DNA from: Galeopterus variegatus
Lineage: Eukaryota
Direction: 5' to 3'
Assembly: GCF_000696425.1 (NCBI RefSeq)
Contig: NW_007726576.1
Coordinates: 660,522 to 702,401 of the forward strand
DNA length: 41,880 nt
Of the stretch, positions 3,147-37,446 are shown one piece after another. The translations under genes were made by a program, and so were the position numbers. The notes under the pieces are model-generated. The model saw only the letters and a program-made list of their open reading frames with translations. It did not search any database and was not told the DNA's origin. Position 1 is the stretch's first letter; each line of letters opens with the position of its first letter.

Positions 3147-3660
3147 ATCCTGTTAAAGGAAAAGTATATATGGATAACTAAGTATCTATTAGTTTTTTTT
3201 GTTTTTTTTTTTGTCTTTTATCTTTTTTCCGTGTCCGGCAACGGATCGCAACCCTCAGATCCTGTTAAAGGAAAAGTATATATGGATAACTAAGTATCTA
3301 TTTGTTTTTTTTTTTGTCTTTTATCTTTTTTCCGTGTCCGGCAACGGATCGCAACCCCCAGATCCTGTTAAAGGAAAAGTATATATGGATAACTAAGTAT
3401 CTATTTGTTTTTTTTTTTGTCTTTTATCTTTTTTCCGTGTCCGGCAACGGATCGCAACCCCCAGATCCTGTTAAAGGAAAAGTATATATGGATAACTAAG
3501 TATCTATTTGTTTTTTTTTTTGTCTTTTATCTTTTTTCCGTGTCCGGCAACGGATCGCAACCCCCAGATCCTGTTAAAGGAAAAGTATATATGGATAACT
3601 AAGTATCTATTTGTTTTTTTTTTTGTCTTTTATCTTTTTTCCGTGTCCGGCAACGGATCG
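3147..3660. repeat. Tandem array, 103-bp unit x5, made of 47 bp of pre-insertion flank plus the 56-bp 3'-terminal piece of the adjacent SINE
   Basis: The period is exact at 103 bp (ORF-track starts at 3199, 3302, 3405, 3508, 3611). The unit is 'atcctgttaaaggaaaagtatatatggataactaagtatctatt' plus 'tgtttttttttttgtcttttatcttttttccgtgtccggcaacggatcgcaaccc(c/t)cag'. The last unit runs into the full SINE at 3613-3848. Confidence 0.9.
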
Positions 3661-3848
3661 CAAGCCTCAGTGTTGCCCCCGTACCGGACCGGAGACCGGC
3701 AACGGGATTGCAAACCTCGGTGTTGCTCCCGCGCCTCGCTCAGCCAGTGAGCGGGAGCCGGTCTGTATGTGGGATCCGAACCCTCGGGCGGGAGCGCCCC
3801 CGCGCTTCCCAAGCGGCGCACTATCCAGTGCGCCACCGGGCCGGCCCC
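3613..3848 (-). mobile_element. tRNA-derived SINE, class A (~230 bp, three tRNA-like units, A-rich tail)
   Basis: Reverse complement reads GGGCCGGCCCGGTGGCGCACTGGATAGTGCGCC...GGGTTCGGATCCCACATACAGACCGG...GGTTGCAATCCCGTTGC...GGTTGCGATCCGTTGCCGGACACGGAAAAAAGA. The 15-bp TSD GTATCTATTAGTTTT is at 3182-3196 and 3849-3863. Confidence 0.85.
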
Positions 3849-4562
3849 GTATCTATTAGTTTTCACATTGAGGCTCTAAACTAATGTAATTTCAGTAAGG
3901 CCACAACTGAGAACAGCAACGAGACAGCTGGTTTCAGTTCTAAGTAGTGAAACACAGAGCATTTGCTGATGTAATGACAGGAACTTCTAAAGTACAACTA
4001 ATATCAGGGAGCAATTATAACCATTTTGTCAGAGATTTTCAACTCTTACATATGCCTGTGTGCGTGTATACACACACATATGCACACACTTTTATATACA
4101 TGAGGGTACCTTGAAAATTTCATAGAATCTCTCATGAACTTTTAAAAGTGCCCTCCATACAAAGTGCTCTTCACACAAAAATATACATACAAAGTTAGGA
4201 AGTGTGGAAGGATATATACCAAAGCATTAACCAGGCCATGTATGGGCAATGGAATTAAGGATGATTTTTACTTTCTTCTTTTGGCTTATTTGCATACTCT
4301 ATGCTTATCTAAATTCTTCATGATGAACATGCAATACAGATAACAAAACGTTTTGAGTGACTGAACAAATTAAAAATCTTATGCCCATTGAACATATCTG
4401 TGTCTTTTATTCTTTTCATTTTACAGATATAATGCATCCAAATGCATAAATGCCAGTACAATTGACTTTATACACTGAAAAGATTATTTCAGATATTTTT
4501 TCTCGCCTATGCATAAACCTCCCCCAAAATGCTTCTTCATATCTTGTCTTGAACATACAAAC

Positions 4563-4727
4563 CTGAAGGTTTTCATTCAAAGCCTTGTCTTGCTGCCAGG
4601 GCGCTACGGAGGCAGGCATGAAGAAGACAGCAATAGCACCTTGGATGCTGAGTTCTGTGATGTAGGTGATCTTGATAAGCACCTTCGCCTTAGGGGGTAA
4701 GTTTCCAACACTCACAGTAAAAACGTC
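4563..4727 (-). CDS. PARP4: PARP4 exon (start of VIT domain), 165 nt, phase 0/0. Translation: DVFTVSVGNLPPKAKVLIKITYITELSIQGAIAVFFMPASVAPWQQDKALNENLQ
   Basis: Minus-strand acceptor ...ctgtttcag|GACGTT (AG at 4728-4729) and donor CTTCAG|gtttgt. The product is VIT-domain-like (compare ITIH 'FQVSVSVAPNAKITFELVYEEL') and matches my memory of human PARP4 'DVFTVSVGNLPPKAKVLIKITYITELSI'. Confidence 0.85.
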
Positions 4728-5048
4728 CTGAAACAGAAACATATGACAACTTTCAAGCCAAAAGAATCTGTTCTATGCTAGTTAATCACTCATAGTTACT
4801 CAACTTGGATTAAAATCTGCCAGGTTCTTCCTCAGAAAATGGTAATAGAACCTACAAAACACATTGGTGGTGCTAAGGAGAATCCTGGAGCCATTCCCAG
4901 TGGTAGAGACGGAGTGACATGTGCGGGAGGTGGAAGAAGAGAAGGCCCCTTGGCAGCTGCACGGGGGAGCATCACCTAATGGATCTGCACTGTGGCCTCG
5001 CACACATGGGCTTTGTCGAGTGGACGGCCTCCACACAGCCCCCTTCTT

Positions 5049-5238
5049 TTTATTTTATTTTATTTTATTTTTTTATTTTTTTTTAAAAGATGACCGGTAA
5101 GGGGATCTTAACCCTTGACTTGGTGTTGTCAGCACCACACTCAACCATTGAGCGAACCGGCCATCCCTATGTGGGATCCGAACCCGGGGCCTTGGTGTTA
5201 TCAGCACCGCACTCTCCCGAGTGAGCCACGGGCCGGCC
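5049..5238 (-). mobile_element. tRNA-derived SINE, class B (tRNA-Ile-like dimer, ~150 bp) with a (TTTTA)n-type tail
   Basis: Reverse complement reads GGGCCGGCCCGTGGCTCACTCGGGAGAGTGCGGTGCTGATAACACCAAGGCCCCGGGTTCGGATCCCACATAGGGATGGCCGGTTCGCTCAATGGTTGAGTGTGGTGCTGACAACACCAAGTCAAGGGTTAAGATCCCCTTACCGGTCATCTTTTAA. The 17-bp TSD CACACAGCCCCCTTCTT is at 5032-5048 and 5239-5255. Unit 1 resembles tRNA-Ile (GTGGTGCTAATAACGCCAAGG...GGTTCGATCCC). Confidence 0.85.
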
Positions 5239-6618
5239 CACACAGCCCCCTTCTTGAAGAACCTTTGGCCTCCCCAACCTCCACTGCTCCAGCACCAGTT
5301 CCACCCATGGCTACAGAACTAGAGAAGCTTTCTCTCAACAGACACAAGGCAGAATTGGCTGCTGCTGTGGTGGGAGAAGGTGCAGAAATGCAGAGAAGTC
5401 CCCACTGTAATGCCCAGGAGCACAGGTCCTGCCTAAGACTGAAGCTGAACAGAACACCCCTGCCCCCACCACGAGCCTAGCACCAAGTGTCAAGGAAGAG
5501 CAGTCTACCACTAGGGGAGGGACAGGAGCATGGCAAAGCCACCTCTGTGGGACAGTGTTCAGGGCCTGCTGAAAGTGAGGGTAGTGCATGAACGCCAAGG
5601 AAAGCCCTTTGGCATCCCAGGACCCACCATGCACCTGGTAATGGCAGCCCACTACTGGAGTAATTTGAAGACGATGGTGCACTGAGGGTCATAATCACAA
5701 CAAAACCCAAACTCGACTCAACTTTGTGACCCCTACACTAACAGCCTGACAGGACAGGAGTGGCCATTTCTGGCATAAATACCATTTGTTTTAGCCTCTA
5801 CTCTTCTTCTACACCCAATGTTCAGAACTCAATCACAAATTCCAAAATATACACATAAAAAAAGCAAGAAAAAAATGACCAAATGTCAAGAGATAAAGCA
5901 ATTAACAGAACAGACTCAGAGATGACCATGGCAAAAATGTATTTCAAAAAAGAAAGTGAAAGATTTTATCAGATAAGCAAAAGGTGAGAGAATTCCTTGA
6001 GAGCACCCTTGCACTGCAAAAAAAAAAAAATGTTAAAGAGAACTCTTCAAGCAGAAGGAGGATAATACCAGATGGAAATTTTTTTACTTATTTCTAATTG
6101 CTTTAAAAGACAGTTGAATATCTAGAGCAAAAAAGTAACAACATGTTGTGGGATTTATAACATATGAAGAAATAAAATACACAACAATAGCACAAAGATA
6201 TGGGGGGAAATGAAAGTATACTGTTGTGAGGTTCTCATACTATACTTGAAGTAGTGTGATATTACTTCAAGGTAGACTGTGGTAAGTGGAAGATGTACCT
6301 TGTAAAGCCTGAAGCAGTGCTGACCAATATTCCTTTCTATGATGATAAAAATGTTCTATAGATGGACTAACCAATAACACAGCCACTAGACACATGCAAA
6401 CATTTTATTTTATTTTAAAAACTAACTTAAATGTAACTAGTGGCTACTGTATTTTAACATGCAGCTTGAGAGCAAAAACCAAAAGTTGTTAAGAGAGGTA
6501 TAATTAATAAGCCAATAATGGTGATAAAAGAATCATAAAAAATACTCAGTACAAAGAAGGCAGGAAAAGAGAGGGGAAGGAACAAAGAACAAATGGGACA
6601 AACAGAAAACAACTGGCC

Positions 6619-6850
6619 TGGGCTGGCCCGGTGGCACACTGCTGCAGTACGCCGCTTGGGAGTGCGGCGGCGCTCCCGCCGAGGGTTCGGATCCCACATA
6701 CAGACCGGCCGCTCGCTGGCTGAGCGAAGCGCGGGGGCAACGCTGAGGGTTGCGATTCTGTTGCCGGTCCTGGTCCGGTACGGGCGCGACACTGAGGGTT
6801 GCGATCCGTTGCCGGTCACGAAAAAAGACAAAAAGGAAAAAAAAAAAAAG
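6619..6850 (+). mobile_element. tRNA-derived SINE, class A
   Basis: GGGCTGGCCCGGTGGCACACTGCTGCAGTACGCCGCTTGGGAGTGCGGCGGCGCTCCCGCCGAGGGTTCGGATCCCACATACAGACCGG...GAAAAAAGACAAAAAGGAAAAAAAA. The 13-bp TSD AAAACAACTGGCC is at 6606-6618 and 6851-6863. Confidence 0.9.
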
Positions 6851-7261
6851 AAAACAACTGGCCAGACGGGAGATGCAAATCCAACCAGATTAGTAACCAC
6901 ATTACATGAAAATGGTCAAAACAATCCACTTAAGGTGCAGAGACTGTCAGACTGGATGAAACAACAAAACTTGACTATATCCTGTCTAAATAGTATAGAG
7001 TTATGGTGAAAAATAAGTCAGTCTAGATTTTTAAAAGAGGAAAAATGGTCAAATAATCCCATAAATGGAGGTCTCAGAAACACTGCCATTTAATCTGGCA
7101 ATTAGGAGGATGTAAGTGGTGCTGGCTGAGCATTCACTCCAGCCTTGGTTGTGGCAACACAGTTCTCTTATTATTTTACCATTAACTCTTTCCTGTCTTT
7201 TTCTGTTACTTCCCCTCTTAAATATTGGGGATATTTTAATATGTAATTATAAATACATAAA

Positions 7262-7322
7262 TACAGAGATTTACAATTAGATATTTATATATATATATAT
7301 ATACATATATATATGTATTTAC
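7262..7322. repeat. (TA)n-rich simple repeat
   Basis: atatatatatatatatacatatatatatgtat run. Confidence 0.6.
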
Positions 7323-8199
7323 ATCTTTATACTTCTATCTTTACAAATAGCATGTTAAGAGCTACATGACAGATATGTCGAGGTTGCCATGGAAGCAGAA
7401 AGTAATTGCATCTAACTTTTCCTGGGGAAAAGCAGGAAAAGCTTTCATTTCCTCTTAGATAAAGGGATTCCTAAGCTAACATTTTAAAAAGTTTTTAAAA
7501 TCAATATATATATTTTTTTAAATCAAGCAAACAAATGTAGTTAGAACATTCCATCCAGAAGAGCAAGCACCTCTGCAAATGGCATTGTTTCTGGGAAATA
7601 CAAATAGCTCAAGCTTATTGGGGTATGAAGTACAAGGGAGAACACAATGAGTGAGACAGAAGAAGCAGACAAAGCCAAGTCTTCGAAGGCCTCCTGCGCC
7701 ATGTTAACGAAACAAGGGAACAACCTGTGGGTCCTAAACTAGAGAAAGGGTTATAGTAAGGTGATGACATGGGCGGATTCCACAGACACTTAGTAGAAAA
7801 CTTCAACAGATGATTAACTGCATATGGGATTTAGGCATATTACTTAATAAGTATGTGTTTTTTATTTTTTAACTTAAAATTTTAAATTACTGATTTATTT
7901 TAATGAGCACTCTCGTTCCTTTTATAACCTGACTTCAAAAATTATTAAATGAAAGATGAATTTATGTATATACCAAAGATGGGCCAATATAAATTTTATT
8001 CTAGTAGTTTAGACAAAGACTTTATTGTGCCTTAACCCAAGAAATCTTAGAGAGGAAAAAAATATATATATAATTTCAGATAAAATTAGACCTAAGGAAG
8101 TGGTAATGGTGTGCTAGGCAGCTTTCCCTGGGTAGGGCAGCCCAAGTCCTTCTCTGCTTCTGCTTTTACCACACAACATTTGAAGGCAGGTGTTCCGGG

Positions 8200-9030
8200 C
8201 TGCATCCTTGGATAATGCCCAATCTGCCCCCAGGCCATCATCTCAGAGACTGCCAGGATGACTCCCAGACCCCCATGCCCAGTGCAGATCTCTCTCCTGA
8301 GCTCTTGACCCTATATCCAGCTTCTTCAGGGACTTGTGCTCACAATGTCCCACCAGTTCTTGAACTCATGATCTCCCCACCCTCCTTACTCCAACACCCG
8401 TGTAGAACCCCACTGCTGTGATCCTTGCCCTGGGGATGCCCACACCAGAACTGCCCAAGTACTATCCTCAGCTCCATTTACTCTGGCACACCCTCCACAC
8501 ATCCTCCACCCCTTACCCAGGGCTGTCCTTCCACCTCCCTAAATTGTCCACAGCAGTTGCATCTTCTCCTTTTCCAAGGTCACTACCTTAGTTTAGGCCC
8601 TCCTTCTACTCTACCACAATGGTCACCTAACTGGTCTTGCCCCTCCAGACTTCTCACTGCCTGCTGAGTGTGCTTTCTCACAGACAGGTCTCATCACTGC
8701 TACTCCAGCCAGGCCAAAATACACCTATTTTCCCAGGGAATGGCACTACTTCAGGTCTCTCACAGCCTGCACTGTGTCCCCTGTGCTCGCAAGGCCCTCA
8801 CCTCATGGTGTACCTGGGGAATGCCTGCTCAGCTCAAGTGCCTCTGTCCCTGGAAAGGCACACCCGAGGTCACTGCCTTGCTGTTCCACTGCTCCGTTAG
8901 TGCGGGAAAGGCATGTCCCCAGCACTACACTTGCTGGGCATGCTAGACCATGCACCCACATGGGACCAGCTGGCATTTCTAAACTGCCAGCGTCTGGCAT
9001 AGGTGCTAAAGTTGGTCTAATCATGAAGTG
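8200..9030 (+). mobile_element. Ancient LINE-2 (L2) 3' fragment
   Basis: Resembles the L2 3' region ('...ctccagacccccatgcccagtgcagatctctctcctgagctcttgaccctatatccagc...cttcagg...ctcacagcctgcactgtgtcccc'). The many overlapping short ORFs here are L2-derived. Confidence 0.4.
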
Positions 9031-9711
9031 AAGAAAGAGGTAGGCAACAGCATCATTTAGGATGACACGGAGTGGCTGCTTTTTGCCATTTTGGAGATTG
9101 CAGGAACACTTAGCAGGAGGATAACTGGATGGTCTGTGGGAAAGTGGCTAAGTCTCATGTCGAAAGAAGGAGAGTAAAGGGGTGGGAATCTGAGGGGAGA
9201 AGAAGGAGCCAGCGAGGGTCTGCTTTATTTTTTAGGGTGGCTAGGTCAAGGAGAAAAAGCGAGTCGTGAGGGAGAAAATGGAAATACAGAGAGGTAATGA
9301 TGGATGGGCACATGCTAGGGAAAGCTTACATGAGATGAGATAGGACGGGGGAAGGGATCAGCATTAGAAATAATCAGGGAGGAAAAAGATGAGGCTGAGG
9401 ATGTCACTTTTGAGCTGGAGGGAGGAAAGCTAAAGGGATTCATGACTTACACTTGTTTTCATTTGAAATAAGAAGAGGGGTCACCTACTGATAGTGGAGA
9501 TACAGGTAAGGTTGCTGGGTTAAGGAGAATGGTAAAGGATTAAAATAGCAATTTTTATGCAGAGAACAAAGAAGCCAGCTGGGGTGAAGAAAGGACTGCA
9601 GAGGTGTAGAGCAGGAAGGGTTGGAGAACGCCACCTAGCTCTTCATTGCAAGACATGCTTCTCCCAGCGTTATCCAGATTTCTGATACACAGCATTAATC
9701 TGATTAATCTT

Positions 9712-9870
9712 TTTTTTTTTTTTTTTGTCCTTTTTGAGACTGGCCGCACCGCACTCAGCCAGTGAGCGCTTTGAGCGCACTGGCCATCCCTATACAGGAT
9801 CCGAACCCACAGAGGGAGCGCTTCTGCGCTCCCAGCGCCGCACTCTCCCGAGTGCGCCAAGGGCTTGGCC
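9712..9870 (-). mobile_element. tRNA-derived SINE, class C
   Basis: Reverse complement reads GGGCCAAGCCCTTGGCGCACTCGGGAGAGTGCGGCGCTGGGAGCGCAGAAGCGCTCCCTCTGTGGGTTCGGATCCTGTATAGGGATGGCCAGTGCGCTCAAAGCGCTCACTGGCTGAGTGCGGTGCGGCCAGTCTCAAAAAGGACAAAAAAAA. The 11-bp TSD TGATTAATCTT is at 9701-9711 and 9876-9886. Confidence 0.85.
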
Positions 9871-10019
9871 CAATTTGATTAATCTTAACGCATCTCCATA
9901 TAACATTCCAACACAAATGATCCGTCTCTCAACACTTTGGATGTCTAAAACTAGAAGAGAGTTGGAAACATTTTATACTGTACATATGTGTGTGTGTCAA
10001 ATAACATCTTTTGATTCTT

Positions 10020-10230
10020 GGGAACATATATGCAACACACAATATATATTACTATATTATATATAGGCTATGCATATGATTTACAATATTCCCCACTATC
10101 AGAAGACTAATATATGAAATATCTAATAATATAAACATATAACTTAATACACATATAGTAATATATAACAAAATATATGTATTTTATGATGATATCATAT
10201 ATTATTATAGCATGAGAACATCAAAGTCAC
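10020..10230. repeat. AT-rich low-complexity / (TA)n-like region
   Basis: Runs of tatata / atatgatt / aatatata. Confidence 0.5.
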
Positions 10231-11256
10231 TAGACAGCAAAATTCATATAGGGAAACCATGGCTTGAGTTGGCAGTAGTTCTGACCAGACTTTACCCGAA
10301 AGTAATATCTTTTGTGAATACCGTTTTCCTGTGGATCATATCCCTAGAAAAATATGTTAGTACAAACTAGGAAACAAATTTACCAACTCATGTCTGACAG
10401 TAACTCCACACTATTAAGCATCAGTCTCTAAAATGAACCGCAGGCTTTTATAAACACAGTTTGGCCAGGGCTAGTAGTATTAACTTTTAATCCTCATCTC
10501 TTCGTTGCTTATCACTATCTGGCAAATAGTTACCCTAGCTGTCAAAAGTAGTAATTTACACCCTAAATCTACATTAATCTTTCATACATCCCTAACCCCA
10601 ACAAACATTAACCTTTCACAATACTAAGGCAAAGTGTCATCCTCAGAGTTAATACCTGAAGCACACAACCCCATCTGCAGAAACTACTACCATGCAGTCA
10701 AGGCATGGTCAGACACTGCATGTAATCCAGCACCTGCCAGAGGCACATTTAAAACACCTTATATTTAACAAAAGTAATCTAGTGGCGTGATAATTGCTCC
10801 TTTTTCCAGACTCTCCACATTACGTTCCTGTTAAAGCAATAATCAGAAAGCAAAGAAGCTGGACCCATCTCACAGCTGTGTAGAAATGCCTTTCTGGGTT
10901 ATGATTTGGTAAAAATTGGATAAATTGCTAACTGAACTTAGTTCTAGGAAAAATGTAAATATATCACACTCTCTTCTCAGAAGATAAAAATTATATACCC
11001 CAAATGTTTTCTTTTTGTTGCCACTTCTGGGAAAGTCAGTTCCCCAGGACAGAAATAGCTGTTTGGTAATATCCTCCTTATTTGGACTAGTCAAATGGGT
11101 CTGACGGGCTTGGCCTACCCTTGCACACAGCAAGTGAAACTCTGAGAGAGTGGAAGTTATCTTGATCTCTAGTATAAGTCTCGTATTTCAAACCCTTTTC
11201 CAACTCTTCTTCCCTCTCTTGTAAGCACACTGACTGCTGGTGAGCACCAGCCGTAC

Positions 11257-11343
11257 CGGAGCATCCTGGTCCATCAAGTAGGCACCATGGCCTCGGCTGA
11301 CGGCATCTCGGTATTCTTGCTGGGCTTCTGCCTTCTCTTTAAT
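11257..11343 (-). CDS. PARP4: PARP4 exon (VIT domain), 87 nt, phase 0/0. Translation: IKEKAEAQQEYRDAVSRGHGAYLMDQDAP
   Basis: Acceptor tcttttccag|ATTAAAGAG and donor GCTCCG|gtacgg on the minus strand. The translation matches my memory of human PARP4 'IKEKEEAQQEYLEAVTQGHGAYLMSQDAP' and joins in phase to the flanking exons. Confidence 0.8.
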
Positions 11344-12012
11344 CTGGAAAAGATTATTTTTACACCAGTCATTATATGAAGAGGGACTTTAGACTTTACT
11401 AAGGAAAGTTACATCAGTGTTCACTAAACCTAGGTAAAAACAGGAAACTAAGCATCTAAGATGAAAGGAAAGTTATATAAGGTTATCATAAAAATGTACT
11501 TATGTAATAAGGATTTGGACTAGAAAAGGCAAACTAAAGAGAATTCTCTTTATGTTGGGACCAAAATATTTCAGAGTCAATAGTGGAAAAACAGTTTGGT
11601 TGGAACTTTACATTGAACAAAAAAATAATAAAGTTTATTTTAAACTCAATAAATTGTGTGTTATATATAATTGCAACTGTGGGCTAATTCTTAGAATAAA
11701 CAAAGAATAAATCAACTACTATTTCTTTTGGTACAATTTTTCTTAGAAATTTACAATAATAGCTTTTACTTCAGCTTGACTTTTAAGCAGGATGAGAAGG
11801 ATGTTTTGGCAAAAATATATGAGGGCTTCACTAATTTTCCAATGTGCCTCTCTTAAACTTCTGATATTGAAATCACTCTTTTTTAAAGTGCCCAGGCAAA
11901 AAATTTGCAAGACACTGACGATAAAGACTGGACAGGTAAGAACAGAAAACAGTTAACAGGGAGGGACGTTTGACTGGAGGCTGATTGCACAAACGTTTGT
12001 TCTTCAAAGAAT

Positions 12013-12238
12013 TTTTTTTTTTCCTTTTTGTCTTTTTTACTGACCGGTAACGGGATCGCAACCCTCGGTGTCACGCCCGCACCGGGGACCGGCAACGGGA
12101 TCGCAACCCTCAGTGTTGCGCCCGCACCGCGCTCAGCCAGTGAGCGGGAACCGGTCTCCACATGGGATCCGAACCCTCGGCGGGAGCGCCGCCACACTCC
12201 CAAGCGGCGCACTCTCCAGTGCGCCACCGGGCCGGCCC
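12013..12238 (-). mobile_element. tRNA-derived SINE, class A
   Basis: Same structure as the SINE at 6619-6850, in reverse orientation (T-rich start, ...CACTGGAGAGTGCGCCGCTTGGGAGTGTGGCGGCGCTCCCGCCGAGGGTTCGGATCCCATGTGGAGACCGG... head GGGCCGGCCC). The 8-bp TSD CAAAGAAT is at 12005-12012 and 12238-12246. Confidence 0.9.
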
Positions 12239-12372
12239 AAAGAATATTTTTGTTTTATGATAAGGCTGCTACTCAACCCTGCATCCACAGGGACTCAGAT
12301 AACGAAGATTTCAGTAAATGGGAAATTGACTTTGAAAGCACAGAGTGGTTGCAATGCACTTTCTCCCCTTAC

Positions 12373-12504
12373 CTCTCCTACGATGTGCTTCCCGTTGATG
12401 AACGCTTCAAAGCCACACACAGCTGCCTTATCATCCAAAGGAAAGATATATTTTGCCTCAATGGGCACATGATGTTGATTTGTGTATGTCTGAAAAACAA
12501 TTAC
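12373..12504 (-). CDS. PARP4: PARP4 exon (VIT domain), 132 nt, phase 0/0. Translation: VIVFQTYTNQHHVPIEAKYIFPLDDKAAVCGFEAFINGKHIVGE
   Basis: Acceptor ttcttctttag|GTAATTG and donor GGAGAG|gtaagg. The translation matches my memory of human 'VIVFQTYTNKSHVPIEAKYIFPLDDKAAVCGFEAFINGKHIVGE' almost exactly. Confidence 0.9.
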
Positions 12505-13380
12505 CTAAAGAAGAAAAAAATCCATATACTTGAACCACATGGAACCACATTTGCAGGAACAGTGACTAATGAAAATGACCACACATACTCGTTTTAAATT
12601 CCTTGAATTTTTATCAGGGCCCTCAAGTTCCCAATCCTGGCTTCAGGGGTCAGCGCATTCTAGCACAGCAATGCACAGTCCATGTCACATGATAAAATGC
12701 ACTGGCACATATTTAGGTAGTTCATACATGACTGACTGGCATATAAGTCACCTGAAGTCTTACAAACACTGTCTTAACAGGGGCAATACAGCTCTTATTA
12801 CAATGGCTGGAAAAGAGCCCCTTCCATGATGTGGGCTCTGATGCCTCCCTGGTGTTGCGTGGGCTGGAAACTATTCCAGAATACTCCTCCTACCCGATCT
12901 GCTTTCAGGTCTTGCTATTTCCTCATGGGGATGTCTCTCTGGCTTTACTGCTCTCTACCAAGCTCTCCGGTGCCTTTCCTCTTCTAGCTCCACGTCTTCC
13001 TGCTGTGATTCTTCCAGAACCAAATATTTTCCATTCCTACCTGCCATCTGTATTGTTACCAAATTAGTCTTCCTAAATGGACTGTGCTCATCACCTCACA
13101 CCTTTGCTCAGGAAAAGCAGGAGGCTTTAGATATTTGAAAATTAAAAAGAAACACCCTTAGACATATAACAAACAGTAAAATTTAAACATGTGGCAATAA
13201 TAAGGCAAACTATTTAACAATTTGTACTAGTAATCTCTGGGAAGAGAAGAAAATTAAAATTAAAAAAAAAAAAAAAACTAACATTTAAAAATACTGTCCA
13301 CACCTAGACTTACTGTAAGTGGGCTGTCCCCTGTGTGTGAAGGGTACCATTCCAGGCAAAATTGTCCAAGGGGCCCCCCT

Positions 13381-13609
13381 TTTTTTTTTTTCCTTTTTGT
13401 CTTTTTTTACTGACCGGTAATGGGATCACAACCCTTGGTGTCGCGCCCGCACCGGGGACCGGCAACGGGATCGCAACTCTCGGTGTTGTGCCCGCACCAC
13501 GCTCAGCCAGTGAGCGGGAACCGGTCTCCACATGGGATCCGAACCCTCGGCGGGAGCGCCGCCATGCTCCCAAGCAGCGCACTCTCCAGTGCGCCACCAG
13601 GCCGGCCCA
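13381..13609 (-). mobile_element. tRNA-derived SINE, class A
   Basis: Near-identical in structure to the 12013-12238 copy. The TSD is CAAGGG(G)CCCC(C)TTTT, at about 13369-13380 and 13608-13622. Confidence 0.9.
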
Positions 13610-15269
13610 AGGGCCCCTTTTAATATAAACAATTTGAGTCTCCCAAAATCATCAGGTCAGCACCCTCTTGAAGACCCAATCTCTTGCCATCCTGCAAATA
13701 AATGCCTTGCTGGCTGGCAGGAGCGATCCCTGGAACTGGGGTCTGGGCATGGCGCAGGATGACGCCAGAGGTGAGAGCCCAGGAGTTTCTCAGTTATTTG
13801 GGCAACATGGATGCATGGCAGAAGGATGGAGAGTGCCTGACAGGGAAGACACGGGGGCTGGAGGCATGCAGGTGCTGATTGGAGGGGTGTCACACACTGT
13901 CTCCTTGGCTGTGCATGGAACTCCCTCCATTTGTCTCTTGGAGTTTTCTGCAGTTTTAGCAAACCCTTGAGAGCAGCATGTGTGCTTGACCTGGATTTGA
14001 TGAATAGGATGACTATCTAATTGCACTTGGTTTAGGTGCGATTAGATAGTCAGCAGACCTTCTGCACGTGAGCTCCCCAAGGCCAGGCCTGTACCAGCCC
14101 ATTCTCTTCATACATTGTGTGAACAGGCACTCAAAAAGTCAGTCATTTTAGATAATGATGATAAAAGTATTTTTATCAGGACTTAGAACAGAAACTAATA
14201 AACTGTAAAATGTTTGACATCTTAATTTTCTTCCTTTAGATGAAACCACTATGTAACTAAGCTGAAAACATTAAACTCATTCCTAGGAGGATCGAAATGT
14301 GAGTCATGCACATGCCAGAGTCGCGGGTGGGCCTCTGCATGGATACATGAGGCCAATCTACAGGCCAGCTGTCCCATCATAAGTTATTTTTGGGTGACCT
14401 TCCCCAGGGAAGCGGCCTCTTCGGGTCTCTTGAAACAGTGCAAGTTGTGAAATCCGGAGTAAGATGCGGAGGACATATGCCTCTCCTTGTAACATACTCA
14501 TAATTTGTTTTGCAGCTACTACATGTGAAAAGAATGCCCGAGGGCCTTTACATTCGTTACATCTAATAGCCACAACACTGATGGGCAGATAGGATTATTT
14601 CCACTTTACACAGGAGGAAACTGAGGCACAAAGTAGTTAACTAACTTGCCCAAGGTCACGGCGCTAGAAAAGAAGGAGCAAGGATACAAAGCGAGGCCTT
14701 TCCAGCTCCAAGCCTTTGCTTCACAGTCTACGCCAAGCTGCACGACAGTGCAGTGGCTCCGAACCCTGATGCTGGAATTAGAATGATCTGAGTTCAGATT
14801 CCGGCTTCATCGTACTGTTCAGTATCCCTGAGCCTCAGCTTCCTCATCCAAACAACACGCATAATTATTGCACTTACCTCATACAGTTTGGGAAGAACAA
14901 AACACGCATGTGAAAAACTCAACCCAGGGCCTGATTCATAGGAAGTGGTAACCACGGTGGTTATAGCTCCCAAATAGCTCCAAAGGGACTGGCAAGTATA
15001 GAACACTGCCCACAGCCCACATCCACGTCTTCCCATCTGATGTACATCATATCAGGTGGGTATGGATCAGATGGGCCAGGGTGGGGAGGTCAGATAGAGC
15101 CAAACTGCTCTTCCCCACCCCTCCGCACCCGTTTCCCCAGTTTACGGTGATTGCTAAAATGAACCTAATTTCCTTCTAAAGGGATCAGAATATCACAGTA
15201 CTGGACTCAGACATTCTTATTCTCCTAAGAGGTCTTTATATTTGTTTGATGCAATCTTTTTTAAAAAAT

Positions 15270-15600
15270 GTATTTATATTCATTGTGCATTTTTATGGTG
15301 TACAGTTTGTTGTTTCAATACACGCATATATTGTGTGATCCACTCAGAATAATTAGCGTATCTATCACCTAAGCAGTTATCATTTCTTCCTGATTATAAC
15401 ATTCAAGAACTTTTTTTCTGGCTATCTTGAGATATACAATGCTATATTACTAGCTCTTGTCACCCTAGAGCACCAGAATTTATTCTTCCCATTGAACTGT
15501 CACTCTGTAACTTTGTACCTGTTTACCAGCTTCTGCCCATTCCCCCCCCTACCCCCAGCTTCTGAGTCTGGTAACTGGCATCTTACTCGCTCTTTCTTTC
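15270..15600 (-). mobile_element. L1 3'UTR fragment (5'-truncated), antisense
   Basis: Reverse complement resembles the L1 3'UTR region ('...tttatggtgtacagtttgttgtttcaatacacgcatat...ccccagcttctgagtctggtaac...'). A second, similar 3'UTR copy follows at 15730-16190 in the large L1. Confidence 0.55.
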
Positions 15601-15614
15601 CTTTTCTTTTTTTC

Positions 15615-15724
15615 TAATTTTTATTTATTTATTTATTTATTTAAAAGATGACCAGTAAAGGGATCTTAACCCTTGACTTGGTGTTGTCAGCACCACGCTC
15701 TCCCAAGTGAGCCACGGGCTGGCC
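15615..15724 (-). mobile_element. tRNA-derived SINE, class B short variant (~85 bp core plus (ATTT)n tail), inserted in the T-rich tail region of the adjacent L1
   Basis: Reverse complement reads GGGCCAGCCCGTGGCTCACTTGGGAGAGCGTGGTGCTGACAACACCAAGTCAAGGGTTAAGATCCCTTTACTGGTCATCTTTTAA. It lacks the ~70 bp between the two internal GGTGCTGA(T/C)AACACCAAG repeats. The same breakpoints recur in the 26007-26114 copy. Confidence 0.75.
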
Positions 15725-18700
15725 CTTCTTTTTTATTCTTTCTTAATTGACCCATGAAAATTGTATATATTTATGGAGTACAGTGTGATATTTAGGTACA
15801 TTTATACAGTGTGCAATGATTATATCAGGGGAGTTAGCATATCTATCTCCTCAAGCATCTGGCATCTCTTTGTGTTGGAAACATTCAGAATCACCTCAAT
15901 TAACCACTTGAAGTGATACAGTAATTTGTCATTGACTGTAGTCTCCCTATATTGCTATAGAACAGTAGATCTTGTGTTTCCCATCTCTCTACTGCTTTGT
16001 TTCTGTTGACTACCTTCTTCCTACACCGCCCCCGGCACCAGTCTCTAGTAACCACTATTCTACTCTCTACTTCCGTGAGATCAATTTTTTCAGCTTTCAC
16101 ATGAGTGAGAACATTCATTATTTCTCTTTCTGTGCCTGGCTTATTTCATGTACAATAATTTTCTCCAAGCTCATCCATGCTGCTGCAAATGGCAGAATTT
16201 CATTCTTTTTTTATGGCTGAGTAGTATTCCATTGTGTATATATACCACATTTTCTTTATCCAGTCATCCATTGATGGACATTTAGGTTAGTTCTGAATCT
16301 TGGCTACTGTAAAGAGAGCCGAGATAAACATGGGAGTGCAGGTATCCTTTTGACTTGTTGATTTCCTTTCCTTTGTATATATACCTATGGCTGGATCGTA
16401 TCTGTGGTTGAGAAACCTCCGTACTGTTTTTGATAATGGCTGTGCTAATTTACATTCCCACCAACAATGTATAAAAGTTCCCCTTTCTCCACATCCTTGT
16501 CAGCATTTGTTACTTTCTGTCTTTTTGATAATAGTCATTCTAAGTGGGGTAAAATGATAGCTTATTGTGGTTTTGGTTTGCACTTTTCTGGTAATTAGTG
16601 ACGTTGAGCACTTTTCCACATACCTATTGACCATTCACATGTCTTCTTTCAAGAAATGTCTATTCAGTTCCCTTGCACATTTTTAATCAAAAAAAAATTT
16701 TTTTTTACTATTGGGCTGTTTGAATTCCTCGTATATTCTGGATATGAATCCCTTTCATAGTTTGCAAATATTTTCTCCCATTCTGCAGGTTGTGTCTCCA
16801 CTTTGTTGATTTTTTCCTTTGCTGTGCAGAAGTTTTAGTTTGATATAATCCCATTTCTTTATTTTTGCTTCTGTTGCCTGTGCTTTGGGGGTCTTGTTCA
16901 TAAAGTTTTTGCCTAGTCCTATGTCTTGAAGCATTTCCCCTATGTTTTCTTCTACAAGTTTTATATTTTTGTGTCTAACATTTAAGTCTTTAATCCATTT
17001 TGAGTTGACTTTGGTATATGGTGAGAGACAGGTGTCCAGTTTCATTCTTCTGCATATGGATCTCCAGTTTTCCCAGCACCATTTATTAAAGAGACTGTCC
17101 TTTCCCCAATGTATGTTCTTCGCTCTTTTGTCAAAATTCAATTGGCTGTAGGTACATGGAATTATTTCTGGAGTCTATATTCTGTTCCACTGGTCTATGT
17201 GTGTGTTTTTGTGCCAATACCATGCTGTTTTGACTATTATAGATTTGTAGTGTAACTTGAAGTCAGGGAGTATGATGCCTCCTGCTTTGTTCTTTTTGCT
17301 CAAGATTGCTTTGGTTATTTGGGGTCTTTTGTTGTTCCATGTAAATTTTTGGATTGTTTTTTTCTATTTCAGTGAAGCATGTCATTGGTAGTTTGATGGG
17401 GATTGCACTGAATCTGTAGATTGCTTTGGGTAGTATGGCCATTTTGACAATATTGATTCTTCCAATCCATGAACATGGGATGTCTTCCCATCTTTTGTGT
17501 GTCTTCTTTAATTTCTTTAATCAGTGTTTTACATTTTTCCTCGCAGGAATCTTTCACTTCCTTGGTTAAATTTATTCCTAGGTATTTTATTCCATTTTTT
17601 TGTTGCTATTGTAAATGGGATTGTTGTCTTGATTTCTTTTCCTGATAGTTTGTTGTTGATGTGTAGAAATGCTACTGATTTTTGTATGTTGGTTTTATAT
17701 CCTGCCACTGTACTGAATTTATTCATCAGGTCTAGGAGTTTTTAGGTTTCTCTCTATATAAAATCATATCATCTGCAAACAGGGACAATTTGACTTCCTC
17801 CTTTGCAATTTGGATGCACTTTGTTGCTTTCTCTTGCCTAATTGCTCTGGCTAAGACTTCCAGTACTATGTTTAGTAAAAGTGATGAGAATGGGCATCCT
17901 TGTCTTGTTCCAGTTCTTAAAAAAAAACAAAAAAACAAAAAAACTTTCAGCTTTTCCCTGTTAGCTGTGGGTTTGTCATATATGGCCTTTATTATATGTA
18001 CATACCTTCTATACCTAATTTGTTGAGAGTGTTTGTCATTAAGTGATGTGGAATTTTATTGAATGCTTTTTCTGCATCTATCAGGCTGATCATATGGTTT
18101 TTCTCTTTCATTCTATTGATGTGATGTATTACGCTTACTGATTTTCATATGTTGAATTATCCTTGCACCCCAGGGATAAATCCCACTTGAGCATGGTGTA
18201 TAATCTTTTCGATGTGCTGTTGGATACGTTTTGCTAGTATTTTGTTGAGGATTTTTACATCTATGTTCATTAGGGATGTTGGCCTGTAGTTTTCTTTTTG
18301 TTCTTTGTTGTGTCCTTACATGGTTTTGTTAAAAAGGTAATGCTGGCCTCATAGTATGAGTGTGGAAGGATTCCATCCACTTCAATTTTTTGAAATAGTT
18401 TAAGAAGTATTGGTATTTTGGTATTACTTCTTTAAATGTTTGGTAGAATTCAGCAGTAAAGCTGTCCAATCCTGGGCTTTTCCTTGTTGGGAGACTTTTT
18501 ATTGCTGATTGAATCTCGTTACTCATTATTAGTCTGTTCAGGCTTTCTATTTCTATTGGGTCAGTGTTGGCAGGTCATATGTGTCCAGGATTTTTTCCAT
18601 TTCCTCTACATTTTCTAATTTATTGCTTATAGTCATAATTGTCTCAGATGATCCTTTGAATTTCAGTGGTATCAGCTGTAATGTCTCCTTTTGCATTTAT

Positions 18701-21470
18701 GATATTATTTATTTGGGTCTTTTATCTTTTTTTCTTGGTTAGTATAGCTAATGGTTTGTCAATTTTGTTTATCTTCTCAAAAGAACCAACTTGTTGTTTG
18801 ATCTTTTGTATTGTATTTTTAGTCTCAATTTCATTTATTTCTGCTCTGAGTTTTATTATTTATTTCTACTTATTTTGGACTTGGTTGGTTCTCTCTTTGC
18901 TAGGTTGTTTATTTGAACTCATTCTATTTTTTGATGTAGGCACTTGTTGCTATAAACTTTCCTCTTAATAGTGCCTTGGCTGTGTCCCGTAGGTTTTGGT
19001 ATCTTTTGTTTCTGTCTTCACTTATTCAAGAAATGTTTTGATTTCCTTCTTAATCTCTTCTATGACCCACTGGTCCTTCAAGAGCATGTCATTTAATTTC
19101 CATGTATTTGTGCATTTTTGAAAGCTCCTCTTGTTATTAAGATCTAGATCTATTCCATTATGGTCAGAAAACATACTTGATATGATTTTGAACTTGTTGA
19201 GACTTATTTTGCGGCCCACAATATGGTCAATTCTGGAAAATGTTCCATGTGCAGATGAAAAGAGTATGTATTCTGCAGCTATTGGATGAAATGCTCTGCA
19301 AATATCTGTTAGGTCCAGCTGGTGTATGGTGCCCTTTAAGTCCAATGTTTTGTTGTTGATTTTCTGTCTCGATGATTTGTCTAACACTGAGATTGGGATG
19401 TTATTGTCCCCAACTATTACTGTGTTAGTGTCTATCTCTCCATTTACATCTGATAATATTTATTTTATATACCTGGGTGCTCCACTGTTAGGTGCATATA
19501 TATTTGTTTTTTGGGGTTTTTTTTTGATGGCTAGCCATGGTGCGTAAATTTTTATAATTGTTATATCCTCTTGCTGTATTGATCTCTTTATCATTCTATA
19601 ATGCCCTTCCTTTCTCTTAGTACAGATTTTGATTTAAAGTCTGTTTTATCTGAGATAAGTATAGCTACTTCTGCTTGCTTTTGTTTTCCATTTGCATGGA
19701 ATACCTCATTCCATTCCTTGACTTTCAGTCTATGTGTGTTTTTGTAAGTAGGGTATGTTTCTTATTGGCAGTATATGGATGGGTCATGTTTTTTTTCTTT
19801 TTTAATCTATTAGGCCAGTCTATGTCTTTTAATTAGGGCATTTAATCCATTTACATTCAAGGTTATCATTGATATGTGAAGTCTTGCTCCTGACATTTTG
19901 TTGGTGACTGTTTTGTATTCTTTGTTCCTTTCTTTCTCTTTTATTGTTTATCCTTGTGGTTTGATATTTTCCTGTATTGATAAGGTTTGATTCCTTCATC
20001 TTTCTAATTTGTGTATCTACTCTACTAGTAATTTTATATTTTCAGGTGTTTTCATGATGTTTGCTGTACTTTCTCTTCTAGATGGAGCCCCCTAATCATT
20101 TTTTTTTTGTGGGGCTGGTCTGGTGGTGATGAATTCCCTGAATTTTTTCTTCTCTTAGAAAGACTATTTCTCCTTCATTTTGGAAGGATAGCATTGCTGG
20201 ATATAATATTCTTGGCTGGCAGTTTTTTTTTTTTCAGTACTTTGAATATACCATCCCATTCTCTCCTAGCCTGTAGGGTTTCAGCTGAGAAGTCTGCTGT
20301 TAGTCTAATGATAATTTCCTTATAAGTGACTTGATGTTTTTCTCTTGCTGTTTTTAGAATTCTCTCTTTGTCTTTAACTTTGGATAGTTTGACTACAATG
20401 TGGCTTGGAGTGGGCCCTTTTGGGTTGAATTTATTTGAGGACCTCTGAGCTTCCAGTATTTGGAAATTCATATATTTCCTAAGACTGGGGAAGTTTTCAG
20501 CTATTATTTCATTAAATAGGTTTTCAGTATCTTTTTCGTTTTCTTCTCTTTCTGGAATGCCCATAATTAGAATATTTCCTCACTTATAACATAGATCCTA
20601 TAGGCTTTGTTCGTTCTTTTTTTTTGTCTTCCTGTGTTATTTCAAAACTGCTATCTTCCAGATCAGAAATTCTTTCTTCTGCTTAATCTAGTCTGTTGTT
20701 GAGACTCTCAGATGTTATTTTTTATTTTGTTCAATGAATTCTTTAATTCCAAGATTTGATTTTTTAAATGATATTTATCTCTGTTGAATTTCTCATTCAG
20801 ATCAAGAATTATTTTTCATGATTTTGTTGAATTGTTTGTTTATATACTCTTGTATCTCAGTGAGTTTCCTTAAGATTATTAATTTGAATTCCTTTTCTGG
20901 TAAAACAGCAATTTCTGACTCTTTGGGATCAGTTACTGAAGTATTATTGCGTTTCTTTGATTGTGTCATGTTACCTTGTTTTTTTCATATTTCTTGTTAC
21001 CCTGCATTGATATCTGTGCATCTGGTAGAACACTCCCCTCTTTGAGTTTTGTAGAGTGGCTTGTGTGGGGAAAGACTTTCACCTGCAAGTGTATTCTAGG
21101 GTGTTGATCAGCAGCTGGTCTGCCAAGGGTCAGGCTACTGAGCCACTTCTTGGATAGTGGGCAAGGTCTCTAGGCAGGCCTGCAGAGGGAGCTCAGCCAG
21201 CCACTTCTCAGGTGGTGGGCAAGGCTGAATGTGGGGCTGCAGAGAGCAGGTCTGGCCAATAGCTTTTTGGGTAGTGGATGAGGCTGCTAGGTAGGCCTGC
21301 AGAGAGGGGGCCCAGGCAGCTACTTCTCAGAGGGTGGGTGAGGCCATGAGGTGGGGCTTCAGAGAGGGTTTGTCCAGCCAGCAGCTTCACGGGTGGTGGG
21401 TGAGGCCGCTGGGTGGAACTGCTGAGGATGAACTGCCTGGCTGCTTCTCTGGAAAGGCGCAGCAGTTTGA
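15725..21470 (-). mobile_element. LINE-1, near full-length (~5.7 kb), inactive: 3'UTR, ORF2 (EN/RT/C-term), ORF1, 5'UTR with monomer array
   Basis: Minus-strand ORF fragments in L1 order from high to low coordinates. ORF1 C-terminal domain at 20175-20564 (PSLRKYMNFQILEAQRS...KERILKTAREKHQVTYK). Endonuclease at 19022-19387. RT motifs at 18329-18526 and 17732-17938 ([26 protein letters not shown]...[11 protein letters not shown]). ORF2 C-terminus at 16755-17141. All are interrupted by stops and frameshifts. Confidence 0.85.
21111..21440. repeat. Tandem ~60-bp monomers (about 5 copies), putative L1 5'UTR promoter monomer array
   Basis: Repeating '(g)gcctgcagag(a/g)g(a/c)gctcagccagccacttctcaggtggtgggcaaggc...' with a period of about 58-62 bp, directly 5' of the minus-strand L1. 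This is analogous to murine L1 A/Tf monomers. Confidence 0.6.
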
Positions 21471-23640: not shown

Positions 23641-23713
23641 GCAACTGCAATCAAATTCTCATTTATTATTTACATCTGTTTAGTTTAAGCATTGTAAAAC
23701 AACAAAAACATAC

Positions 23714-34949: not shown

Positions 34950-35969
34950 CTGTAGGTGGAAATGATACACAGATGTTAGAATCATCACATACCAAAATTA
35001 ATATTTATATTACCATGACACTTTCTCAAAAAAATTGGAAAAATCAGTTTCAGTTTTTTCATCAAAGTTTTGATCAATATTTGTTGTTAGTGAGGTATTA
35101 AACTTAATACTGCTGCATCACTAATAGCACAATATACAGTAATAATAATTCTGTACATTAGTACAGCACAATGTTTTTCGGGGGAATAGGAATGATTTTT
35201 TCCTATACTTTTTTATTTTGAACAGTGAACACACTTTCTTATAATCTCAAAAATATTATAAAACCATATATGCAAGTAAACCATTATTTTTACAAACGTA
35301 AGCAACCCTGAAGCAGTACAATTTCCAGAAGTCTTTCTTTTTCTCCTGTCGCAACATTTGAACCACATGTGGCAGGATGAATGACACACTCAGTTGACAA
35401 ATTGTTACTGGGCTCTTTACCACAGCTTATGAAACAAAAAGCCAAACCCTCTTCAGTATTTTCTACCCTTAAATAGTTCCATGTAAGTCTTAGGCCACAT
35501 CATTGCAGTTGAGGTACAAATTCCTAAGAAATGGGATATTAGTTACAAAAAAATCAGACTAGTCCCACTAATATAAACAAAAGTCGAGAAACAAAATCCA
35601 TAACCTGAAAACATGGATGGGAAACACAAGCAACATGCTCCTTCCCCCCACCTCACATATGGTCACACTGATACTGATGAGATTTGGGGTTTCAAGGTAT
35701 TTTTCCTTCCTGATTTCATTAAAAGCAAAATAAGAAGCAATGCACTTCTCTAGAATCTTTACAAAACAAAGCAACTATTTTCAAAGTGAGTCATTTTTGT
35801 TTAAAAGAACAGTATCAGAAGCAACCTGGAGCCACAGACTTTTAAAAGAACACTCGATGGAAACTGCTGGGAGAGGGTGGGCAGTTGGCTTGCTGCTGTG
35901 GTCTTTGGCTAATGGGGCATCAAAATGACATAATCCACAAGACGGCGTCAGCTGCTCACAGCACTTCAC

Positions 35970-36058
35970 CCAGGAATGGATGTCTAGTAGCCCTTGCCAG
36001 CTCAGCATAAAAATGGATTATTTTATTGACCACGACAACTTGAGACAGCATCTCAGCT
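35970..36058 (-). CDS. PARP4: Candidate PARP4 helical-domain exon, boundaries tentative. Translation: AEMLSQVVVVNKIIHFYAELARATRHPFL(G)
   Basis: Minus-strand open frame with acceptor ccatgtgcag|A and possible donors CTGG|gtgaag or GTGCT|gtgagc. Similarity to human 'TLSQEVSDLVEMIWAEALGHLEHMLL' is weak. It lies in the correct order between 37175-37359 and 34789-34949. Confidence 0.3.
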
Positions 36059-36700
36059 CTGCACATGGAAAGCTTCCTGTTCTCTTTCTCTATTGGTTCT
36101 AAGTGCCTCTCCCATCTGTGTGTCTTCAATCTCATGTGCACTAATAAAGCTGAATGCTAAACACTGCAGTGAGTTCATCTTCAAGGGCCTAGAAGCTTTA
36201 TGAGAACAGAAACCTTTTCTGTTTCTAAAATCAGAGAAGAAAGGTAGCCAGAAAGCTCAGCCTGTGAGATGGTTTGTTTCAAAGGAAGGGTTAACATCTG
36301 TGTTCACATCCAGACATGAACTATACCAAAGAGCTCCTCACGGCATGAAATGGGAAGACATTTCACTTAATGTTGCTCAAATCCAACTTTGCCTTTCAGA
36401 GGAATCTCTCGGCAGACAAGCCAGCCCTCTACAGCAAGATCCAAGAGAAGTGGAATCACAGTGGCCAGGCCTTTCATCTGGATGGACAACAGTGTGGCCA
36501 GGTACCTGTTGCTCCTAAGGGATAAGGTGTTGAGGGAACTACATATGAACTGAGCTTGCTGGGTGGCCGGTGCACTGGAAGGTGGACGTGGCTAGCCAGT
36601 CACAGACTGCAGACGCACCGTTAGCCAAAGACCACAGCAGAAGTCAACTGCACCTTCTCCCAGCAGTTTCTATCAAGTGTTCTTTAAAAAGTTTGCTGCT

Positions 36701-36928
36701 GGGGCCGGCCCGGTGGCGCACTGGATAGTGCGCTGCTTGGGAAGCGCGGCGGCGCTCCCGCCCGAGGGTTCGGATCCCACATACAGACCGGTTCCCGCTC
36801 ACTGGCTGAGCGAGGCGCGGGAGCAACACCGAGGGTTGCAATCCCGTTGCTGGTCCCGGTCCGGTACGGGGGCAACACTGAGGGTTGCGATCCGTTGCCG
36901 GACACGGAAAAAAGACAAAAAAAAAAAA
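36701..36928 (+). mobile_element. tRNA-derived SINE, class A
   Basis: GGGGCCGGCCCGGTGGCGCACTGGATAGTGCGCTGCTTGGGAAGCGCGGCGGCGCTCCCGCCCGAGGGTTCGGATCCCACATACAGACCGGTTCCCGCTCACTGGCTGAGCGAGGCGCGGGAGCAACACCGAGGGTTGCAATCCCGTTGC...GGACACGGAAAAAAGACAAAAAAAAAAAAAAA. The 13-bp TSD AAAGTTTGCTGCT is at 36688-36700 and 36929-36941. Confidence 0.9.
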
Positions 36929-37173
36929 AAAGTTTGCTGCTCCACAAGCAGACACATGCATACGAGAGTGTTGGCAGCTTTCTGATTTTAAACCCTACTA
37001 CAACACTGTGGCAGGCCCTATGGTTGCAATCCCGTTGCTGGTCCCGGTCCGGTACGGGGGCAACACTGAGGGTTGCGATCCGTTGCCGGACACGGAAAAA
37101 AGACAAAAAAAAAAAAAAAGTTTGCTGCTCCACAAGCAGACACATGCATACGAGAGTGTTGGCAGCTTTCTGA
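36835..37173. repeat. Duplicated block: the SINE 3' half plus 56 bp of 3' flank (36835-36985) repeated at 37022-37173, with a 36-bp filler (36986-37021) between
   Basis: 'ggttgcaatcccgttgctggtcccggtccggtacgggggcaacactgagggttgcgatccgttgccggacacggaaaaaagacaaaaaaaaaaaaaaagtttgctgctccacaagcagacacatgcatacgagagtgttggcagctttctga' occurs twice. The filler 'ttttaaaccctactacaacactgtggcaggccctat' matches 38963-38998 with one mismatch. Confidence 0.85.
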
Positions 37174-37174
37174 C

Positions 37175-37359: not shown

Positions 37360-37446
37360 CTGTGAAAATCTGCATTTTGTGGCTTTGAGGCACGGGAAAA
37401 CATCTACTTGGGAATAAGCTGAGATCGTGAATTGTGTGTTTTTTTT

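Follow-up and report, generated by a model that had tools for sequence, protein, structure and literature searches.

Tandem duplications span the element-flank junctions of three of seven class A SINEs in a 41.9-kb window of the colugo genome

Seven full copies of one type of short interspersed element (SINE), called class A here, are present in a stretch of 41,880 nucleotides from Galeopterus variegatus (assembly GCF_000696425.1, contig NW_007726576.1, positions 660,522 to 702,401 of the forward strand). The whole of this stretch is referred to as the window, and coordinates are counted from its first letter. Three of the seven copies carry a tandem duplication that starts inside the element, crosses its edge and continues into the flanking DNA. 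The duplications, D1, D2 and D3, are found at the tail of the copy at 3613..3848 (A1, minus strand; five units), at the head of the copy at 32849..33078 (A6, minus strand; two units) and at the tail of the copy at 36701..36928 (A7, plus strand; two units and a filler). A first-pass annotation of the window had reported junction-spanning duplications at these three elements, and Tandem Repeats Finder (TRF), a repeat search and self-comparison all recover them. It had also described the target-site duplication (TSD) as part of the repeated units, which is correct, with all or most of the TSD contained in each. As the sequence reads, it is rather probable that D1-D3 are real duplications formed after insertion of the SINEs, by breakage or fork stalling, copy synthesis, template switching and joining without homology.

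The class A copies were located by blastn with the copy 36701-36931 as the query and then aligned. A poly(A) tail and a TSD are present in all seven, and the alignment sorts them into three subfamilies. A1, with its poly(T) tail at the low-coordinate end, and A7 are both members of the youngest subfamily and, at 96.5% identity, form the youngest class A pair. A6 is of the subfamily that also includes A2 and A5.

D1 is a five-unit tandem array at 3147..3670, seen by TRF (period 103, 4.6 copies, 99% matches), by the repeat search and by unit-by-unit comparison. Besides the TSD and the poly(T) tract, its units contain 35 bp of unique flank and the terminal 45 nt of the SINE, and the tail variants private to A1 are common to all of them. 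Unit 1 (3147-3258, 112 bp), the farthest from the SINE body, is the ancestral one. It alone has the intact 15-nt tail-side TSD GTATCTATTAGTTTT (3182..3196), the same as the head-side TSD GTATCTATTAGTTTT at 3849-3863, and it keeps the family-consensus base, a T, in CAACCCTCAG. A 9-bp deletion common to units 2-5 removes part of the TSD and of the poly(T) tract; the shortened TSD copies, GTATCTATT, begin at 3294, 3397, 3500 and 3603. Units 2-4 (3259-3361, 3362-3464 and 3465-3567, 103 bp each) are identical to one another and combine the deletion with a T>C substitution, while unit 5 (3568-3670, 103 bp), which is continuous with the SINE body, combines it with a C>G substitution. Because the deletion and the two substitutions are nested across the units, D1, judged by its units, is a multistep minisatellite, with at least three duplication steps and mutations in between. 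The order of events would have been a first duplication, the deletion, a second duplication, the substitutions and then further amplification. Such a history is ordinary for a minisatellite, and growth to five units probably proceeded by unequal exchange or slippage between units that were already repeated.

D3 consists of two copies of 152 bp that are 100% identical, or 188 bp when the filler between them is included. Copy a (36834..36985; TRF and self-comparison) starts at SINE position 134, takes in the poly(A) tract and the TSD, and ends after 44 nt of flank, with 95 nt of SINE tail including the poly(A); copy b occupies 37022..37173. The A7 TSD, AAAAAGTTTGCTGCT, is found at 36686-36700 and 36927-36941, with the duplicated copy at 37115-37129, and the variants private to the A7 locus are present in the D3 copies. 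Between the two copies lies a 36-nt insertion, TTTTAAACCCTACTACAACACTGTGGCAGGCCCTAT (36986..37021, plus strand). It is identical at 35 of 36 positions to a donor site on the same strand at 38963..38998, 1,977 bp downstream (blastn E=1.1e-13; also seen by self-comparison). The filler has no other match in the window, and the similarity to the donor ends exactly at 36 nt on both sides. Since it matches one same-strand site, unique in the window, at 35 of 36 positions, the filler, by its sequence, is a templated insertion, which is a signature of template switching. The surroundings of the donor presumably resemble an ancient MIR core; we read the 35/36 identity as direct copying and not as family similarity. 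Equally, the structure of D3 would result if 37022-38998 (1,977 bp) had first been duplicated in tandem and 1,789 bp had then been lost from the first of the two copies. No fillers are found in D1 and D2.

D2 is a 171-bp unit present twice, with two differences between the copies (99% by TRF). Copy a (32916..33086) contains SINE positions 1-163 in the minus-strand reading and 8 nt of the TSD, CAAAACAT; copy b (33087..33257) contains the partial SINE head and 8 nt of the TSD again. The new junction, at 33086/33087, reads CAAAACAT/GTACCGG. The A6-private variants of copy a are also in copy b. Since the copies of D2 and D3 carry variants private to the A6 and A7 loci, they appear to have been copied from their own loci. 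The two differences in D2 are at unit positions 1 and 10, 9 bp apart, and both are CpG transitions. Copy a, in the original context, has the decayed CpG at 32916 (A) and 32925 (T), whereas copy b, beside the new junction, has the family-consensus G at 33087 and C at 33096. This pattern is compatible with a contig end running into a collapsed repeat, with short templating from another class A copy, and with chance. Error-prone synthesis at the new junction can be ruled out as its source, as the junction-side copy holds the ancestral state.

By self-comparison, repeat search and TRF, D1-D3 are the only long local direct repeats in the window with an identity of at least 99%. All three consist of at least two tandem units that are at least 95% identical (99%, 99% and 100% by TRF), and the units of D1, D2 and D3 overlap the class A SINE by 45, 163 and 95 nt, respectively. 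They arose in situ, in that the extra units share the private variants of A1, A6 and A7, with unique flank also included in the units of D1 and D3. In simulations that placed three segments of these lengths at random, all of them lay across class A junctions (14 in the window) with P=1.1e-4 and across junctions of any SINE (26) with P=5.7e-4; co-location of the duplications with SINE junctions is thus non-random. The observation in the first-pass annotation that the other retroelement classes of the window are free of such duplications holds here by self-comparison. For contrasts between SINEs, a total of 13 was used, the seven of class A and six others; three of seven against none of six gives a Fisher p of 0.19, and with 13 SINEs a specificity for class A is not demonstrable.

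None of the new junctions (3258/3259 with its repeats, 33086/33087, 36985/36986 and 37021/37022) has any microhomology (0 bp in 4/4), a set too small for a test of microhomology enrichment (~0.1 expected by chance). Short direct repeats bounding the units, of the 5-20 bp that the Haber-Louis model of slippage calls for, are also absent from the founding junctions. On the SINE side and in A7 coordinates, the breakpoints fall after positions 133 (D3), 167 (D2) and 177 (D1), all within the two 45-nt modules of the tail. These tandem modules, at the class A 3' end, are predicted to fold as compound hairpins (GCAAC-N7-GTTGC), with the breakpoints of D3 and D1 located in their apical loops. The predicted fold of the whole class A SINE is more stable than that of shuffled sequences on both strands (z = -3.85 and -3.73), and its 3' part is GC-rich (70% G+C, 24 CpG) and hairpin-forming. 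With three events, the clustering of the SINE-side breakpoints in the hairpin modules is no more than suggestive. On the flank side, the breakpoints lie in arbitrary sequence, at TGT/ATCC, CAT/TTTA and TGA/CATG. None of these is a TTTT/AA site, which rules out an L1 endonuclease nick as the direct maker of the breaks; the original target site of A6 is 4 nt from the D2 flank breakpoint. With 24 CpG in 205 nt, the nearness of a breakpoint to a CpG, where base-excision repair could leave nicks, is uninformative. The A/T-rich termini, which had been put forward as a possible trigger of slippage or template switching, are not supported as sites of breakage: the poly(A/T) tracts are inside the units of D1 and D3 and not at their ends.

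For the formation of the three duplications we infer an initiating lesion, a role for the hairpin modules and a repair pathway. A break or a stalled fork would arise inside or beside the GC-rich, hairpin-forming 3' part of the SINE. Synthesis from the free 3' end would then continue, either on the sister chromatid as template or after re-priming 100-190 bp behind, and the extended end would be joined without homology, producing a short tandem duplication from the SINE interior across the edge into the flank. For D3, a 36-nt detour of the copying end to a template 2 kb downstream would have come first. One picture may unify the three events: a fork or extending end comes in from the flank, halts in the hairpin modules and re-primes 100-170 bp behind, in which case the duplication would necessarily straddle the SINE edge.

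Candidate pathways, both established, are failed synthesis-dependent strand annealing (SDSA) combined with end joining, and template switching of the type known as fork stalling and template switching or microhomology-mediated break-induced replication (FoSTeS/MMBIR). The latter is a replicative form of template switching, reportedly described by Lee, Carvalho and Lupski in 2007 and by Hastings and colleagues in 2009. D3 resembles its products in being a duplication with a short insert whose template lies 2 kb away in direct orientation, implying that the template was switched twice within a single event. It differs from them in that the expected 2-5 bp of microhomology at the switch points is absent at 36985/36986 and 37021/37022, and in scale, which is 150 bp here against kilobases to megabases. 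In helq-1 / brc-1 mutants of C. elegans, tandem duplications of ~100 bp to 10 kb, occasionally with templated insertions, result from end joining of extended SDSA intermediates, the sister chromatid being the source of the segment that is duplicated (PMC8654963). The duplications described here are similar in size (103-112, 171 and 152 bp), in being direct and tandem, and in having a templated insert in one of three. In the worm, however, microhomology is over-represented and the process depends on polymerase theta (PMC8654963), while the four junctions here are blunt. The absence of microhomology points to classical end joining more than to joining by polymerase theta or to MMBIR, a choice that four junctions cannot decide. 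The first-pass annotation had named slippage or template switching as possible causes; template switching is visible in the D3 filler and plausible at the other two loci, whereas slippage does not agree with 0 bp of microhomology at all four junctions.

Several observations weigh against the reading of D1-D3 as real duplications formed in this way. Polymerase-theta joining and MMBIR typically leave junctions enriched in microhomology, which the blunt junctions here do not match. What argues for the reality of the duplications is the internal logic of the sequence only. All three are very young, at 98.8% identity or more, with no decayed older example in the window, and an assembly artefact predicts the same. 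The D2 differences are clustered, with the consensus state on the junction side, which is how a contig end entering a repeat would look; if two differences fall among ~39 CpG sites, the probability that both are found there is ~0.004. The coincidence of breakpoints and hairpins was noticed post hoc with n=3, and its chance is roughly 0.12 for three breakpoints within 45 nt and ~0.02 for two in loops. Finally, derived tandem repeats are found at 0.18-0.40% of human Alu loci (PMC3389668), a frequency that three affected loci in seven exceed about 100-fold, and this density is itself suspicious.

A stronger form of the favoured reading, which we hold possible though doubtful, takes class A as a hot spot in its own right, where the paired 45-nt hairpin modules would stall forks or attract breaks and so give rise to tandem duplications independent of homology. 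A large share of young copies would then carry junction-spanning duplications, at ~100-fold the frequency for human Alu, and the same process would have made class A itself, through duplication of the module in a master copy. The structure of the element can be set beside this. Class A aligns with two further SINE classes of the window, B and C, and TRF (period 45) and alignment show it to be a two-unit class C-type element whose last module is present once more, as a copy of 45-49 nt. As it differs from class C by this one extra copy, class A was probably itself born by tandem duplication of the module that holds the three new breakpoints, a history read from the alignment. The internal 45-bp module array is located at 36817-36903 in A7 and was also recovered at 12042-12129 and 13412-13498 (TRF, alignment).

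That D2 and/or D3, as well as the copy number of D1, are products of assembly, with contig ends abutted or wrongly gap-filled at a repeat-induced gap, is unlikely when the three are taken together. The annotation had raised a systematic artefact as one of its two explanations. Locus by locus, an artefact is very unlikely for D1, as its sequence stands: abutting contigs cannot yield three unit types with nested mutations, and the array also has two junction contexts; at most the count of three identical units would be wrong. For D3 it is disfavoured, since two separate false junctions would be required around a 36-mer copied from 2 kb away. A chimera from mate-pair circularisation could imitate the junction at 37021/37022, but not that at 36985/36986. 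D2 seems the weak case among the three for reality and may be an artefact, as its only differences are confined to the first 10 bp of copy b, which has the family-consensus state there. D2 and D3 both have exactly two copies, identical or nearly so, with blunt junctions; every event is at one high-copy family; and the local frequency is implausibly high when compared with human Alu. False duplications tied to wrong gap filling are documented (PMC9516828), and D2 and D3 resemble them as adjacent, near-identical two-copy repeats (Ko et al. 2022, PMC9516828). The documented cases are mostly split by gaps or depth gaps (PMC9516828), whereas no gaps separate the copies here, the D1 units are diverged and D3 has a templated insert. 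There is, in fact, no N in the 41.9 kb of the window, and six other SINEs and the L1 fragments, equally gap-prone, are without duplication. Should the Illumina colugo draft, which was built with SOAPdenovo2 and an unpublished gap closer (PMC4980104), be the source, the risk of an artefact would be higher. A long-read colugo assembly exists too, and long reads as the source are hinted at by the lack of gaps in the window and by the resolution of three identical 103-bp units, which reads of 100 bp are too short to count.

The duplications could also be real and have no cause specific to SINEs, being three unrelated local events or the result of regional instability of this intronic region, with D3 perhaps made by the 1,977-bp duplication and 1,789-bp deletion mentioned above. 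We regard this as quite improbable. It agrees with the non-significant contrast between class A and the other SINEs (p=0.19), with the post hoc nature of the breakpoint clustering, and with the D3 junction CCCTAT/GGTTGC, which is the exact junction of a simple duplication of 37022-38998. The probability of ~1e-4 to 6e-4 that all three span SINE junctions by chance argues against it, as does the lack of any recent duplication in the 96% of the window outside class A; the two-step route to D3 would furthermore require two independent blunt events at one site.

Retrotransposition in cis is more improbable still. In this explanation D1 and D3 would derive from a read-through transcript of the element itself, re-inserted with 5' truncation. 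Priming would have occurred where L1 endonuclease nicked the element's poly(T), the TSDs would be unusually long (no less than 45 and 57 nt), and the D3 filler would be a template jump of the reverse transcriptase at the 5' junction. L1-mediated insertions are known to carry extra or chimeric nucleotides at their 5' junctions. The extra units do have the layout of target-primed reverse transcription with a primer paired in register to a read-through RNA, a 5'-truncated SINE with a poly(A) of equal length and repeated flank, their truncation points are at hairpins, and it has been proposed that an L1 endonuclease site beside a transposable element (TE) acts as a hot spot of recombination (PMC3389668). 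However, D2 duplicates the head of its SINE without tail or poly(A) and cannot be made by this route. With lengths of at least 45 nt, both TSDs would be rare outliers outside the typical range of ~7-20 bp, and the filler would need a plus-strand RNA from within an intron of the minus-strand gene described below. A plain DNA duplication needs fewer assumptions to account for the identical tail length.

Classical replication slippage or unequal exchange between short flanking direct repeats (Haber-Louis), for instance via the TSDs, is the textbook route of minisatellite birth and is cited for Alu-derived minisatellites (PMC3389668), but it is hardly credible here, contradicted for the founding events by the 0-bp direct repeat or microhomology at every founding junction and by TSDs that bound the whole SINE and not the duplicated units; it accounts for later expansion (D1 units 2-4) and is likely for the D1 expansion steps only.

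Read as real duplications, D1-D3 belong with known TE-derived tandem repeats and call for no new mechanism, their local density being the unusual part. About 23% of human minisatellites are TE-derived, most of these have two units, younger subfamilies are more prone to form them, and 94% are without the direct repeats or the truncated end unit predicted by slippage models (PMC3389668). D1-D3 share with them units made of parts of a SINE, an origin in situ, a leaning to younger subfamilies, mostly two units, and the lack of flanking direct repeats (PMC3389668). Among human elements there are also 136 cases of a partial Alu beside a full Alu (Ahmed & Liang 2012, PMC3389668, which in turn cites Jurka & Gentles 2006). 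D2, with its partial 5' SINE copy beside a full copy, is exactly of this class (PMC3389668). Unlike the Alu cases, the units here include the TSD and flank (in the D2 unit, part of the TSD), one has a templated insertion, three of seven loci are affected, and the host SINE is probably tRNA-related and multi-unit, not 7SL-derived. SINE-derived satellites are a further point of comparison, with examples in squamates (sSats; PMC10702118) and in the variable number tandem repeat (VNTR) of mouse B1, the latter as cited in PMC9659126. There too, portions of a SINE turn into tandem arrays, recurrently and in an apparently non-random manner. Those arrays, however, are SINE-internal and amplified to many copies or loci, whereas the ones described here are private to their locus and have 2-5 units with unique flank. 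Particular to D1-D3 are thus the junction-spanning units with TSD and flank, the single templated insertion, the breakpoints in the class-defining module and the high density.

The four class A copies besides A1, A6 and A7 have blastn spans, confirmed by alignment, of 6620-6846(+), 12013-12238(-), 13382-13608(-) and 30983-31209(+); by the same procedure A1, A6 and A7 span 3617-3848(-), 32853-33078(-) and 36701-36931(+). The copies at 12013-12238 and 13382-13608 are of one subfamily, in the same orientation, 1.37 kb apart and ~94% identical. As their TSDs differ, they are independent insertions and not a segmental duplication. These SINEs may be of the tRNA-derived t-SINE/CYN type of colugos. 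The second unit of class C scores as a tRNA, with 48.6 bits in Rfam and as tRNA-Val GAC in ARAGORN; class A itself has no tRNA match and no Rfam family. Matches to tRNA (Rfam / ARAGORN) were obtained at 5091-5162(-), 31534-31608(+) and 15658-15714(-), the last being a weak Rfam match outside every annotated SINE. Searches that started from class A gave no match for SINE-frame peptides in a homology search, for a 34-nt pattern in a metagenome scan or for SINE strings in the literature. Open reading frames across the D2 and D3 junctions, and two exon reading frames, likewise had no exact protein match.

Apart from D1-D3, the long-period arrays in the window are the SINE-internal 45-bp module and two arrays at 21141-21426 and 41235-41321. 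The former of these two is an old GC-rich minisatellite with a period of 58-60 bp and units that are 64-74% identical, unrelated to any SINE; the latter is a GC-rich 45-bp repeat with 80% identity. Old L1 remnants are present as fragmented LINE-1 ORF2-like frames at 260-724(+) and 16755-20564(-), with edges that have no local duplications.

Exon-like open reading frames resembling the PARP catalytic and VIT domains are located at 25396-25686(-) and 4416-4742(-), and their database relatives carry PF00644 and PF08487; the top match in a homology search with the exon peptides is 91% identical. Based on these domains, the minus strand probably contains the 5' half of a PARP4-like gene, with D1-D3 located in its introns. 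A GC-rich stretch with runs of GCA/GCG triplets near 41.2 kb is probably the promoter or first exon of this gene. No functional effect of D1-D3 on the PARP4-like gene is apparent.

Should D2 or D3 turn out to be an artefact, this would point to a systematic assembly error at these elements, one that inflates repeat counts and genome size. If D1-D3 are real, as we favour, they would represent the birth of minisatellites at the edge of a retroposon, caught at two units, in one case with a templated insertion, and at five units with a readable history. If the rate of three in seven holds genome-wide, the SINE family would contribute greatly to small structural variation and offer a useful natural system in which to study structure-induced fork stalling. 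Under the more doubtful hot-spot reading, class A would give rise to minisatellites and small structural polymorphism as a source that renews itself and is dispersed across the genome.

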